Notes: a model not told the origin generated them from the letters alone. A stretch of DNA of 64,000 nt from Escherichia coli (GCF_003334815.1 NZ_QOWO01000025.1); one strand, 5' to 3'; shown: positions 11,198 through 29,908, numbered from the stretch's first letter. Translations and numbers: made by a program.

Positions 11198-11296
11198 GCC
11201 GGATGCGGCGTGAACGCCTTATCCGGCCTACAAAATCGCTTAAATTCAATATATTGCACCATCCTCGTAGGCCTGATAAGCGTAGCGCATCAGGCA
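11198..11296. repeat. REP/BIME element (two inverted REP units)
   Basis: gccggatgcggcgtgaacgccttatccggcctac and inverted partner gtaggcctgataagcgtagcgcatcaggc; canonical E. coli REP consensus. Confidence 0.85.
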
Positions 11297-16818: not shown

Positions 16819-18225
16819 TCAGAAGATGGTGAATGGTGCGATTACCATAAATTTCACGTCACGCTCATCCTGGAAGATGTTGCCGTAACCACCGCCCCAG
16901 CTTGGGATGTCGGAGTGGTTGTCGTATTCGGTGAAATGCAGTTTGAACATCGTGCCTTTGGCGCGACCGTCCTGAATGGTATAGACCGCATCCAGGCTGT
17001 AGGCAGACTCTTCAATAGTCCGGTTTTTGTCGTAGTACGCATCCGGATTGCTCTGCCAGGTCGCAGGTTTAGCATCCCATGCGTAAACGTAGGAAGCGCC
17101 GATGGCGAAGCCTGGAAGATTCCAGTTTTTCAGGTCATACATCGCACCGAAGAAGACCGCTTTTTCGCCGTTGGCGTTGAAGTCAGAACGGTTATCCCAC
17201 CAGATATCCAGGCGACCGTTTGAGGAAGCGTAGGTTGGAGTCATACGTTGCAGGAAGTATCCCTGCTGACCGTCAGCCTTAACCCAGGTGCCTTCGAGGC
17301 GCAAATCCACTACGTCAGCCGCCCGGTAACCAAAGGTCAACGCTTGCAGCCAGGCGGTGCCGTCATAAAGGTCGTTGACGCTGCGATCGTCAACTTTATC
17401 TCGGGTACCGTAGAACTGGTAGCTGGTGGTTAACGGGCTACCGGCGATATCAAATTTGTAGCTGGCTTTGGCAAAATATTGATCGATATACCCTTCCGCC
17501 TGACCAAATGCCGCTTCCAGTACGAAGTTATTTTTGAAGTCGTATTTCGCCCCAAAGGAGTGCAGATAATCAACTTTGGTGGTTTTATCGTTCTGATAAA
17601 ACTCATCCATTTCCAGATGCCACGGCGCTTTGTATTCGTTGGTCCACATGTAGGAGAAACTCAACGCACCAGCATCGCCGTAATCAAAATTCGCCCCGGC
17701 TTCCGCCCCCTGATAAGTACCTGGCATAAAGCTCCAGTGCGGCGCTAACAGCGTTTGACCAGTTGGGTGAATGTAACCTGCCCTCGCCCAAACCGGACCG
17801 TATTTAAATTTGGCCGCAGCTTTATACAGGCTTATACCGCTTTTGTCGCCGGACCAGTCTTCGTCATAGGCTTTATTACTTTTTGAAAACGCGATTTCGT
17901 TCGGGTGGGAGCTGTCGCCGTTTTCCGCCATTTCAATCGCCGTAAACGCAGCAATATCAAGGCCGAACATATCAGCAGCATAACCGGACTGAAAATCGAG
18001 GTTGGCATTCCAGGTGGAGTGAGAAAGGTTGGTTTTGTATTTGTCGCCGTCGGTAACATCTTTTCGGTCGCGTTCACGCTGCCAGTAATAGATACCGCCG
18101 GTTAAGGTTGAATCGTCGATGAATCCTTCGGCGCGAGCCTCCGGCATTGCCATAAAGCCCGACATTGCTGTAACACCGGCGATAGCCAGCGCCAGCGTAC
18201 TACGTTTGCCACTAAACGTACGCAT
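16819..18225 (-). CDS. chiP: Chitoporin ChiP, OprD-family outer-membrane porin (468 aa)
   Basis: [35 protein letters not shown]...; signal peptide, C-terminal aromatic residue (F); long AT-rich 5' leader. Confidence 0.92.
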
Positions 18226-18624
18226 GGGTTAATCCTCTTTGACGTATAAATTGCTGCACCAAAGGTGAACAGCGAAAAAATAAAAATTAAAAAAGTAGCG
18301 TTGAGAAAAGTCTCGCTGACTACAGGAACAGACTATTTTTCGCGACGCGAATTATCAATCTCTTTCTGTAACCAGAATGTAAGAACATGAGCAACCGCAC
18401 ATATTTTGATGATTTTTGTTACAAGGCTTAAGTTTGCGGTTGAAAGGCTTGCAGAAGAATAAAAGCGTGAAATTCCAGCAAGATGAAAGCGGTTACATTT
18501 TATTTAATTATGTTTTGTTATTTTAAATTTATTTTATGGATAAATTGCGAAGCGGAATTAATTCGCGAAGAAAAGCAGAAAAAACGCCGCTGAACGCGGC
18601 GTTTTGGATTGTTTGCTGTTTCTT

Positions 18625-18787
18625 GCCGGATGCGGCGTGAACGCCTTATCCGGCCTACAAAAGCACGCAAACTCAATATATTGCAGAGATCATGTAGGCC
18701 TGATAAGCGTAGCGCATCAGGCAATTTAGCGTTTGAAACTGTTTGTCTGTTCCTTGCCGGATGCGACGTAAACGCCCCATCCGGCAT
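18625..18787. repeat. REP/BIME cluster (at least three REP units)
   Basis: Repeated gccggatgcggcgtgaacgccttatccggcctac / gtaggcctgataagcgtagcgcatcaggc / gccggatgcgacgtaaacgccccatccggca units. Confidence 0.85.
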
Positions 18788-18801
18788 AGCGAAACTTAAA
18801 A

Positions 18802-20466
18802 TTACTCGCCTACTTTCGCCCAGGTATCACGCAGCCCAACGGTGCGGTTAAATACCGGTTTTTCCGCCGTAGAATGGCGGCTATCGAGGCAGAAGTAACC
18901 TTCACGCTCAAACTGGAATGCTTTACCCGCAACCGCATCTTTCAGCGACGGTTCAGCAAAGCCCTGTTTGATCACCAGCGATTCCGGGTTAATCACCGAC
19001 AGGAAATCATCCGCAGCACCTGGGTTAGGCACGCTGAACAGACGGTCATACAAACGGATTTCAACCGGCAGCGCATGTGCCGCGCTCACCCAGTGAATAA
19101 CACCTTTGACTTTACGACCATCTGCCGGATCTTTGCTTAAGGTATCGGCGTCATAAGTACAGAAGATGGTGGTGATATTACCTTCGGCATCTTTCTCGAC
19201 GCGTTCTGCCTTAATCACATAAGCATTACGCAGACGCACTTCTTTACCCAGCACCAGACGTTTGTACTGCTTGTTAGCTTCTTCGCGGAAATCGGCGCGA
19301 TCAATCCAAATCTCACCGCTAAACGGCACCTGACGGCTGCCCATTTCCGGTTTGTTCGGATGGTTCGGCATGGTAACCATTTCGCCTTCGCCCTGATAGT
19401 TTTCGATAACCAGTTTCACCGGATCGATAACCGCCATTGCGCGCGGCGCATTTTCGTTGAGATCTTCACGGATGCAGGATTCCAGCGACGCCATCTCAAT
19501 GGTGTTGTCCTGCTTGGTCACGCCGATGCGTTTGCAGAACTCACGAATAGAAGCCGCAGTGTAACCACGACGACGCAGACCGGAAATGGTCGGCATACGC
19601 GGGTCATCCCAGCCTTCAACGTGCTTGTCGGTCACCAGCAGGTTCAACTTACGCTTGGACATCACGGTGTATTCCAGATTCAGGCGCGAGAACTCATACT
19701 GGCGCGGGTGAACAGGAATCGTGATGTTGTCCAGTACCCAGTCGTACAGACGACGGTTGTCCTGGAACTCAAGCGTACACAGAGAGTGCGTAATACCTTC
19801 CAGGGCATCGCTGATGCAGTGGGTGAAGTCGTACATCGGGTAGATGCACCACTTGTTGCCAGTCTGGTGGTGTTCAGCAAATTTAATACGGTACAGCACC
19901 GGATCGCGCATCACGATAAACGGTGAAGCCATGTCGATTTTCGCACGCAGGCAGGCTTTACCTTCTTCAAAACCACCGGCACGCATTTTTTCGAACAGCG
20001 CCAGGTTCTCTTCAACGCTGCGGTCGCGGTACGGGCTGTTTTTACCCGGTTGCGTCAGGGTGCCGCGGTATTCGCGGATCTGTTCCGGCGTCAGTTCATC
20101 AACGTACGCCAGGCCTTTATTGATCAGTTCGATCGCATAGGCGTGGAGCTGATCAAAATAATCGGAGGAGTAACGGACGTTACCAGACCAGTGAAAACCT
20201 AACCACTCTACGTCGTTTTTGATCGACTCAACATACTCGATATCTTCTTTTACCGGGTTAGTGTCGTCGAAACGCAGGTTGCACTGGCCTTTATAGTCCT
20301 GGGCGATCCCGAAGTTCAGGCAGATAGATTTCGCATGGCCAATATGCAGATAGCCATTCGGCTCCGGCGGGAAACGGGTGTGTACTGTGGTGTGCTTACC
20401 ACTGGCCAGATCTTCATCGATGATCTGACGGATAAAGTTAGTCGGGCGGGCTTCTGCCTCACTCAT
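18802..20466 (-). CDS. glnS: Glutaminyl-tRNA synthetase (554 aa)
   Basis: [23 protein letters not shown]; class I HIGH (HIGH AKS) and VMSKR motifs. Confidence 0.96.
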
Positions 20467-20668
20467 CGTGGATTCCTCAAAGCGTAAACAACGTATAACG
20501 GCGTATGATCTTATAAGCGGGACAGGCTGACAACTGTTAGTTTTTTAAAATTGATAATCTAACAAGGATTATGGGGATGATTGATGAAAAAAAAAGCGGC
20601 AGAGAAGATCTCCACCGCTTGTCATTGTTGGATGCGACGCTCAAGCGTCGCATCAGGCATAAAGCAGA

Positions 20669-22615: not shown

Positions 22616-22947
22616 CTTATTCCCCCTACGAGAACCCTATTTGGCTCGTTTCAAGCCGTATTTTTATTTTGCTGCAAATTGTACTGCCGATGTTCTGTAA
22701 TCAGATTGTTAGATCATCTGCTACAGAGTGTGTGAAAATTTAATTCGTATCGCAAATTAAACGCGTGTCTTTTGTGAGTTTTGTCACCAAATATCGTTAT
22801 CATCACTCCCTTTTACTGGCTAAACCAGAAAACTTATTTTATCATTCAAAAAATCAGGTCGGATTGACGCCTGTCTGCGCAAATCCAGGTTACGCTTAAA
22901 GATGCCTAATCCGCCAACGGCTTACATTTTACTTATTGAGGTGAATA
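22616..22947. promoter_or_regulatory. Divergent nagE / nagBACD control region
   Basis: AT-rich 330-bp intergenic region between divergent nagE and nagB; NagC/CRP operators expected here from established knowledge, individual sites not mapped. Confidence 0.5.
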
Positions 22948-27036: not shown

Positions 27037-27135
27037 GCCTGATGCGCTACGCTTATCAGGCCTACGCAGCTCCTGCAATATATTGAATTTTCATGCTTTT
27101 GTAGGCCGGATAAGGCGTTCACGCCGCATCCGGCA
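27037..27135. repeat. REP/BIME element (two inverted REP units)
   Basis: gcctgatgcgctacgcttatcaggcctac ... gtaggccggataaggcgttcacgccgcatccggca. Confidence 0.85.
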
Positions 27136-29425: not shown

Positions 29426-29502
29426 GGCTACGTAGCTCAGTTGGTTAGAGCACATCACTCATAATGATGGGGTCACAGGTTCGAATCCCGTCGTAGCCAC
29501 CA
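29426..29502 (+). tRNA. metT: tRNA-Met (elongator, anticodon CAU)
   Basis: GGCTACGTAGCTCAGTTGGTTAGAGC ... GTCGTAGCCACCA; cloverleaf with CAT anticodon and encoded CCA. Confidence 0.93.
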
Positions 29503-29511
29503 TCTTTTTTT

Positions 29512-29596
29512 GCGGGAGTGGCGAAATTGGTAGACGCACCAGATTTAGGTTCTGGCGCCGCAAGGTGTGCGAGTTCAAGTCTCGCCTCCCGCACCA
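29512..29596 (+). tRNA. leuW: tRNA-Leu (anticodon UAG), long variable arm
   Basis: GCGGGAGTGGCGAAATTGGTAGACGC ... CTCGCCTCCCGCACCA; 85 nt with variable arm. Confidence 0.92.
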
Positions 29597-29619
29597 TTCA
29601 CCAGAAAGCGTTGTACGGA

Positions 29620-29694
29620 TGGGGTATCGCCAAGCGGTAAGGCACCGGTTTTTGATACCGGCATTCCCTGGTTCGAATCCAGGTACCCCAGCCA
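29620..29694 (+). tRNA. glnU: tRNA-Gln (anticodon UUG)
   Basis: TGGGGTATCGCCAAGCGGTAAGGCACCGGTTTTTGATACCGG...CCCCAGCCA. Confidence 0.92.
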
Positions 29695-29709
29695 TCGAAG
29701 AAACAATCT

Positions 29710-29786
29710 GGCTACGTAGCTCAGTTGGTTAGAGCACATCACTCATAATGATGGGGTCACAGGTTCGAATCCCGTCGTAGCCACCA
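29710..29786 (+). tRNA. metU: tRNA-Met (elongator, anticodon CAU), second copy
   Basis: Identical to 29426..29502. Confidence 0.93.
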
Positions 29787-29833
29787 AATTCTGAATGTGT
29801 CGAATATGTTCGGCAAATTCAAAACCAATTTGT

Positions 29834-29908
29834 TGGGGTATCGCCAAGCGGTAAGGCACCGGATTCTGATTCCGGCATTCCGAGGTTCGAATCCTCGTAC
29901 CCCAGCCA
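29834..29908 (+). tRNA. glnV: tRNA-Gln (anticodon CUG)
   Basis: TGGGGTATCGCCAAGCGGTAAGGCACCGGATTCTGATTCCGG...CCCCAGCCA; anticodon CTG is wild type, not the supE CTA allele. Confidence 0.92.

Follow-up and report, generated by a model that had tools for sequence, protein, structure and literature searches.

What occupies the 576 bp between glnS and chiP in Escherichia coli, and does the cluster of REP units found there serve either of the genes beside it? The gap (18226-18801) was analysed within a window of 64,000 nucleotides, meaning the whole stretch of DNA studied, and is bounded by the glnS stop on one side and the chiP ATG on the other. The order on the minus strand is glnS, the gap, chiP and chiQ, and the window is numbered in the direction opposed to MG1655 (window coordinate = 726559 − MG1655 coordinate). 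Over the 801 bases around the region the sequence is 100% identical to that of E. coli BL21(DE3), BW25113 and further K-12/B-type genomes. The reading put forward here, to which a probability of about 0.88 is given, is that this DNA is the spacer between glnS and chiP known from E. coli K-12, composed of three already described minus-strand units, and that its BIME is accessory. All the elements (Table 1) are known kinds of feature, already described for K-12, and the significance of the region beyond accuracy of annotation is small. The analysis separates four textbook elements that an earlier reading had run together: the REP/BIME cluster, the terminator of glnS, the chiP promoter with its NagC control and the leader (ChiZ) to which ChiX pairs. 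Shown by it are the anatomy, the assignment of the repeats to families, the complementarity to ChiX, the pattern of conservation and the frequencies of the alleles.

Table 1. Features of the glnS-chiP region in window coordinates, listed in the order in which the minus strand is read.
Feature	Position	Strand	Details
glnS CDS (glutamine--tRNA ligase)	18802..20466	-	Stop TAA 18804-18802; ORF list and RefSeq annotation of the identical sequence
Y' REP, first hairpin of the glnS 3' UTR	18756..18786	-	-24.5 kcal/mol; GTAG tail degraded to CTATG
Head-to-head linker	18724..18754	.	17-nt copy of the Y-to-terminator spacer, AAGGAACAGACAAACAGT, and BIME-1 flanking motif TTCAAACGCTAAAT
Z1 REP, short 29-nt Z form	18694..18722	-	100% consensus, inverted
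Tail-to-tail 'L' linker of BIME-1, 33 bp	18660..18692	.	IHF-consensus site ACTCAATATATTG
Y REP	18625..18658	-	100% consensus; intact GTAG tail 18657-18660; -20.9 kcal/mol
glnS intrinsic terminator (predicted)	18571..18605	-	10-bp stem AAAACGCCGC/GCGGCGTTTT, 5-nt loop, then TTCTGCTTTT
Distal operator-like motif TTCGCGAATTAATTCC	18549..18571	-	Just downstream of the terminator; from the conservation profile and cross-genus sequences
CRP-like site TGTGC-N6-TCATG	18386..18401	-	Conserved; centre at -70.5 relative to the chiP TSS
23-bp palindrome GATAATTCGCG-T-CGCGAAAAATA, candidate NagC operator	18334..18356	-	Between and overlapping the -35 and -10 boxes
chiP promoter (predicted)	18330..18358	-	-35 TTGATA 18358-18353, 17-nt spacer, -10 TAGTCT 18335-18330
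chiP 5' UTR = sRNA ChiZ, 98 nt	18226..18323	-	MG1655 annotation 708236-708333
ChiX pairing site CGUCAAAGAGGA	18233..18244	-	Lies over the Shine-Dalgarno sequence; 8-19 nt before the AUG
chiP CDS (chitoporin)	16819..18225	-	ATG at 18225; ORF list and annotation

An earlier note on this DNA, made from its sequence alone, had described at least three REP units in alternating orientation at 18625..18787, and this holds. Compared with the REP consensuses by blastn-short, the three units map as Y, Z and Y: Y (18625-18658) agrees with the Y consensus at 34/34 positions (100%), Z1 (18694-18722), inverted with respect to both Y units, with the short Z consensus at 29/29 (100%), and the degenerate Y' (18756-18785) with the Y consensus at 26/30 (87%). 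The foot tetranucleotide GTAG/CTAC is found in two of the three, Y (18657-18660) and Z1 (18693-18697), and is degraded in Y' (CTATG). An independent repeat search returned Y and Y' as a direct repeat of 42 nt (86% identity, spacing 131) and also the inverted repeat formed by Y and Z. The same consensuses match exactly at 11198, 11267, 27037 and 27101 in the window, and the region used as a query finds, among the matches listed, a median of at least 39 matching places per E. coli genome; exact copies elsewhere and many places in each genome mark a dispersed family rather than chance palindromes. The properties looked for in a REP, namely a consensus palindrome, high copy number, dispersal and extragenic position, are thus all present. 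Y' starts 15 nt past the glnS stop, so that the cluster does abut that gene, as had been proposed. Between nagE and glnS, at 20644-20658, lies a further 15-nt exact fragment of a Z-type REP.

The type of BIME is decided by the Z unit. BIME-1 consists of Y and Z1 with a long conserved L linker, often with an IHF site inside, and is described as a single pair; BIME-2 consists of tandem Y and Z2 units with a short S linker, and clusters with extra REPs are the 'atypical BIMEs' of the Bachellier/Gilson scheme (Ton-Hoang, 2012). As naRNA4 is Y-l-Z2 (Qian, 2015) and its Rfam consensus reads Y, linker and GCCUGAUGCGACGCUUGCGCGUCUUAUCAGGCC, Z2 must be the long GCGACGCTTGCGCGTC form, which leaves Z1, by elimination, for the short unit seen here; identity as BIME-2 was rejected on this ground. 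The search for Z2 at the cluster gave as its sole match a 14-nt stretch that is common to Z1, and the naRNA4 matches in Rfam (42.5 and 31 bits, threshold 59.5) are sub-threshold and come from the Y hairpins. Y and Z1, inversely oriented and separated by the 33-bp L linker, have the arrangement of a BIME-1, but not its limitation to a single pair, since Y' is attached as a third REP along with a second copy of the spacer. Because the Y-Z1 pair encloses an L linker with an IHF-consensus site, the core is, in our own parsing, a BIME-1 (RIB/RIP) element accompanied by one degenerate Y' on the Z1 side. The boundaries of the head-to-head linker were parsed from the direct repeat, from alignment with other BIME-1s and from comparison of alleles.

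The likeness to BIME-1 (RIB/RIP) comprises the tail-to-tail consensus Y and Z1, the 33-bp L linker with its IHF-consensus core CAATATATTG, the flanking motif beside Z1, the position at the 3' end of a transcription unit and near-identity to two other BIME-1 copies in the window. The cluster departs from these elements in its extra degenerate Y' and duplicated spacer on the Z1 side, which bring the REPs to three, and in having local sequence where the canonical Y-side flanking motif TGACAAAGTG would stand. With BIME-2 elements such as REP325/naRNA4 it shares Y REPs, a copy number that varies between strains and the sub-threshold naRNA4 matches, whereas it has neither a Z2 REP nor a short S linker, and its units are not tandem and identical. 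The two other BIME-1 elements (Y-L-Z1) lie at 11198-11295 and 27037-27134, and both REPs in them match the consensus at 100%.

The L linker aligns with the linkers of these two Y-Z1 pairs, with AAAnTCAATATATTGCA in common, and is itself dispersed (median of 12 places per genome). Its putative IHF site, ACTCAATATATTG at 18671-18683, has one mismatch to the consensus WATCAANNNNTTR; a match to that consensus stands at the equal linker position in all three BIME-1s of the window, against a background of 0.21 matches per 200 bp. Binding of IHF to L is an established general property of BIME-1 (Ton-Hoang, 2012), and the IHF binding that the earlier note had foreseen is on this motif plausible. The same cannot be said of the gyrase binding foreseen with it. 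BIME-2 (Y-S-Z2) is the documented gyrase target (Ton-Hoang, 2012), and the preferential cleavage of Y-type REPs is documented within BIME-2 (Sutormin, 2018), but the element here is Y-L-Z1 plus Y'; nor was the glnS-chiP locus found in the part of the gyrase supplement of Sutormin (2018) that was available. The assignment is thereby corrected to a BIME-1-like element with an IHF site, not a gyrase-associated BIME-2. As to Rfam, the L linker of the cluster scores 28.9 bits against ES036, below the threshold of 37.6, while that of the copy near 27 kb (27058-27100, minus strand) passes the gathering threshold with 41.1 bits, which makes the 'sRNA' family ES036/CssrF in effect the BIME-1 L motif.

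The earlier note had seen in the BIME the place where the glnS 3' end would be stabilised. Overlooked in that first reading, and lying inside the span labelled there as leader and promoter, is a predicted intrinsic terminator: a GC-rich hairpin followed by a U-run on the transcribed strand, 3' of glnS, whose stem (18605-18581, minus strand) is a perfect 10 bp with 6 GC pairs and whose hairpin has an energy of -16.5 kcal/mol. Conservation was followed in 80 chiP loci from species-representative genomes. Most of them keep glnS and chiP in synteny, the two genes being usually 385-565 bp apart, and a AACGCCGC-loop-GCGGCGTTTTTT hairpin stands 25-45 nt past the glnS stop in seven other genera (Salmonella, Citrobacter, Klebsiella, Enterobacter, Buttiauxella, Trabulsiella and Leclercia). 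Between glnS and the terminator of these seven genera no E. coli-type REP was found. The stem of the terminator is kept in all the Enterobacteriaceae genera examined, but the REPs are not. This pattern identifies the REPs as later insertions between the glnS stop and the terminator, through which the K-12 glnS 3' UTR would have grown to ~230 nt, with three REP hairpins and its end at the conserved terminator. The glnS 3' end is thus most likely set by the terminator at 18605-18571, downstream of the BIME, and not by the BIME. In the available part of the Term-seq tables of Adams (2021) neither the REPs nor the terminator have a called 3' end, which refutes neither placement of the transcript end.

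Several matches over the terminator to Rfam families (RefA9, STnc420, sroD and the Trp leader) were rejected, being sub-threshold and of the generic-hairpin kind. Flanked by an A-run as well as a T-run, the terminator (18581-18605) also scores on the plus strand, antisense to chiP; no convergent gene uses this plus-strand version. For strain 2009C-3133, RefSeq lists a 52-aa 'hypothetical protein' (locus L002, 685-843) on the strand opposite to glnS and chiP that spans the terminator/REP region. Similar mechanical ORFs occur in the window at 18518-18787 (minus strand) and 18609-18851 (plus strand), and all of these are probably spurious calls due to the repeats.

The number of REPs differs among strains, as the comparison of BIME copy number that the earlier note proposed makes clear. 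The three-REP allele, sought with a 136-bp query (18640-18775) and scored at >=80% coverage, is present in 2462 of 5426 complete E. coli genomes (~45%); in the remaining E. coli genomes the gap is ~131 bp shorter and holds a single Y REP. The state with a single Y REP is found in Escherichia albertii and E. whittamii too, and since they share it with the other E. coli, one REP is likely ancestral for the genus. Comparison of the sequences shows that the K-12 allele differs from the single-REP allele by an added 131-bp block made up of the BIME-1 flanking motif, Z1, L, the consensus Y and a second 17-nt Y-to-terminator spacer. The loop of Y' (GTTTAC) is that of the single-REP alleles, and the loop of the terminator-proximal Y (GTTCAC) is that of other BIME-1s; Y' is probably the resident REP that K-12 has in common with single-REP alleles. 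The K-12 cluster would accordingly be composed of a BIME-1 core, Z1-L-Y with the IHF site in L, added to an older solitary Y' beside the stop codon.

Other repeats are found at the same place. In SCPM-O-B-8794, a divergent Escherichia strain (locus L008, 2491-2625), a BIME-2-like arrangement of Z2 REP, 22-nt linker and Y REP sits between the glnS stop and the terminator, and this Z2-S-Y allele was found at the glnS-chiP locus in none of the 5426 complete E. coli genomes. A Superficieibacter sp. (locus L011, 2436-2640) has a REP-like palindrome of its own, GCCGGGTGGCGGCTTCGCCTTGCCCGGCCTAC, between glnS and the conserved terminator, suggesting that repeats of this sort insert repeatedly into the interval between stop codon and terminator. 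BIMEs in general are hotspots of intergenic polymorphism (Ton-Hoang, 2012). Two of the three REPs are missing from more than half of the E. coli genomes, and all three from other genera; whatever function the cluster may have is, judged by these comparisons, dispensable. Given that the 131-bp block is an addition carried by ~45% of E. coli genomes, the BIME is best viewed as an accessory polymorphic repeat insertion and not as a locus-specific regulatory device. The locus is a clean example of BIME polymorphism and could serve as a natural test of the effect of REP number on the mRNA of an essential gene.

Whether the BIME nevertheless works, in line with the view of the earlier note, as a functional element of the glnS mRNA 3' end, blocking 3'-5' exonucleases or attenuating transcription and so setting the stability or level of the mRNA, has to be weighed against these distributions. 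All three REPs lie within the glnS 3' UTR and form hairpins on the glnS sense strand (-24.5, -13.2 and -20.9 kcal/mol for Y', Z1 and Y, respectively), and the 3' UTR as a whole folds far better than shuffled sequences (-101 kcal/mol, z = -7.7). In this minimum free energy fold Y' pairs with Y at long range, although co-transcriptional folding would favour the local REP hairpins. REP-mediated stabilisation of mRNA and BIME-associated attenuation of transcription are established general properties (Newbury, 1987, and Espeli, 2001, as cited in later work). However, of the 3' elements only the conserved terminator, which lies past the BIME, is common to other genera, 55% of the E. coli genomes carry a single REP and the other genera lack REPs altogether, and the Term-seq tables cited above, as far as available, call no 3' ends at the palindromes. 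Such a role is therefore rather unlikely, and protection of the glnS 3' end by the REPs, like the position of the transcript end itself, is something we infer or take from the literature.

The closeness of Y' to the stop codon raises a different possibility, a control of glnS translation in which the terminating ribosome would stall and the mRNA would be cleaved, with rescue by tmRNA. Such a mechanism was reportedly described in 2015 by Liang, Rudd and Deutscher for REPs located <16 nt from a stop codon. The stem of Y' starts at nt 16 after the TAA, which gives a spacing of 15 nt, and the spacing is equal in the single-REP alleles and in E. whittamii. Yet this value is exactly at the cut-off and rises to 16 nt once the weak U-A pair that closes the stem is disregarded, a constant spacing is trivial if the REP was simply inherited, and glnS was not found in the RepRanger text or supplements to the extent that these were available, all of which makes this control distinctly improbable. 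The accessory reading of the BIME is also preferred over a role in DNA architecture, in which IHF on the L linker, alone or together with gyrase on the Y REPs, would shield the chiP promoter from glnS read-through or supercoiling, or else bound a domain: the IHF-consensus site in L, the frequency of such sites in BIME-1 L linkers (Ton-Hoang, 2012), the preference of gyrase for Y-type REPs within BIME-2 (Sutormin, 2018) and the location, with a constitutively expressed housekeeping gene on one side and a promoter under tight repression on the other, speak for it, but it is very unlikely when gyrase enrichment is documented for BIME-2 and not for Y-L-Z1, when the locus does not appear in the available part of the gyrase supplement, and when most E. 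coli genomes and all the other genera lack the element but keep the chiP promoter architecture.

That architecture takes up the AT-rich part of the gap. The promoter boxes were located in the sequence by their position before the annotated TSS (G at 18323). In an alignment of 70 sequences the best-conserved block of the whole gap, 18357-18330, contains the 23-bp palindrome, which is identical at 15/23 positions, aligned by the centres, to the nagE-nagB operator sequence TTTAATTCGTATCGCAAATTAAA (window 22742-22764). The search with a NagC pattern gave 3 matches against 1.75 expected, a number not above chance for a pattern as loose as this one. NagC is reported to repress chiP (Plumbridge et al., 2014, as cited in PMC4098024), and the palindrome is a candidate NagC operator. 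Within the distal motif, GCGAATTAAT at 18566-18555 is conserved at >=90%, and the version of the distal block in other genera, TTCGCGATGCGAATTAAT, comes close to an inverted copy of the proximal palindrome. The motif is a candidate for a second NagC site, ~210 bp upstream of the first, with which a DNA loop could be formed. The site at 18386-18401 we take to be CRP-like from its resemblance to the CRP consensus.

Judged from sequence, chiP resembles the NagC two-operator system of nagE-nagB in having an AT-armed 23-bp palindrome with a CG-rich centre that overlaps the promoter, and a second similar motif upstream. It differs in the spacing of the operators, ~210 bp being larger than the ~93 bp at nagE-nagB. 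The proposed chiP promoter would thus consist of a -35 (TTGATA) and a -10 (TAGTCT) box overlapped by a conserved NagC-type palindrome and accompanied by the CRP-like site at −70.5 and the distal operator-like motif; the binding of NagC and CRP here, as that of IHF to L, is what we infer or take from the literature. By its presence or absence the 131-bp BIME-1 block divides E. coli into two allele classes of roughly equal size. It is highly improbable that the block causes heritable differences between strains in glnS 3'-end processing or translation or, by IHF bending beside the distal operator-like motif, alters repression of chiP through a NagC loop; were either so, a repeat element would have given rise to a regulatory polymorphism of natural origin.

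Between the promoter and the gene, the long structured leader of ~380 bp that the earlier note had assigned to chiP is not supported. The span 18226-18600 is indeed AT-rich (GC 0.36 vs 0.51 window-wide), but the chiP 5' UTR, which is ChiZ, measures 98 nt and its fold (-16.8 kcal/mol, z = −1.13 vs shuffles) is no better than that of shuffled sequence. The other ~280 bp of the supposed leader are taken up by the promoter, the palindrome over it, the CRP-like site, the distal motif and the glnS terminator. No chiP TSS is annotated upstream of 18323. A second promoter farther upstream, by which a long leader could be rescued, was considered and rejected, the consensus-like sequence at 18526-18497 being one match against 1.3 expected.

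The placing of the ChiX target in the chiP 5' UTR was right. An exact-complement search with the MG1655 ChiX sequence finds a perfect 12-nt complement at 18244-18233, any other 12-mer complement in the 64-kb window being of low complexity. This complement to the ChiX seed lies over the chiP ribosome-binding site and within the transcript that runs from the TSS to the start codon. RNAduplex, run with ChiX against the whole region, returned a long-range duplex no better than that obtained with shuffled ChiX. ChiZ is an Hfq-dependent RNA of ~90 nt that begins at the chiP TSS, ends where Term-seq places a 3' end (MG1655 708334, at the chiP start codon), is made by Rho-dependent termination and sponges ChiX, with support from Term-seq and northern analysis (Adams, 2021, PMC7815308). 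At the present locus, pairing of ChiX over 12 nt that cover the ribosome-binding site blocks translation and favours Rho termination, and the ChiZ leader fragment so freed acts as the ChiX sponge. The locus is identical in sequence to MG1655, including the ChiZ annotation, the pairing site and the 3' end, and shows no differences from the ChiX-chiP-ChiZ circuit. That circuit is said to have been treated by Figueroa-Bossi in 2009, Overgaard in 2009 and Bossi in 2012.

One chicken isolate, E. coli ECCWS199 (locus L086, 190-960), carries an IS1A insertion at the 5' end of chiP, which is there listed as a pseudogene. Elsewhere in the window, the whole-window Rfam scan finds the sroC sRNA at 38296-38458 (174.8 bits) and, at 29426-29905, five clustered tRNA genes, both of which fit the K-12 gltI and tRNA-Gln/Met/Leu region.
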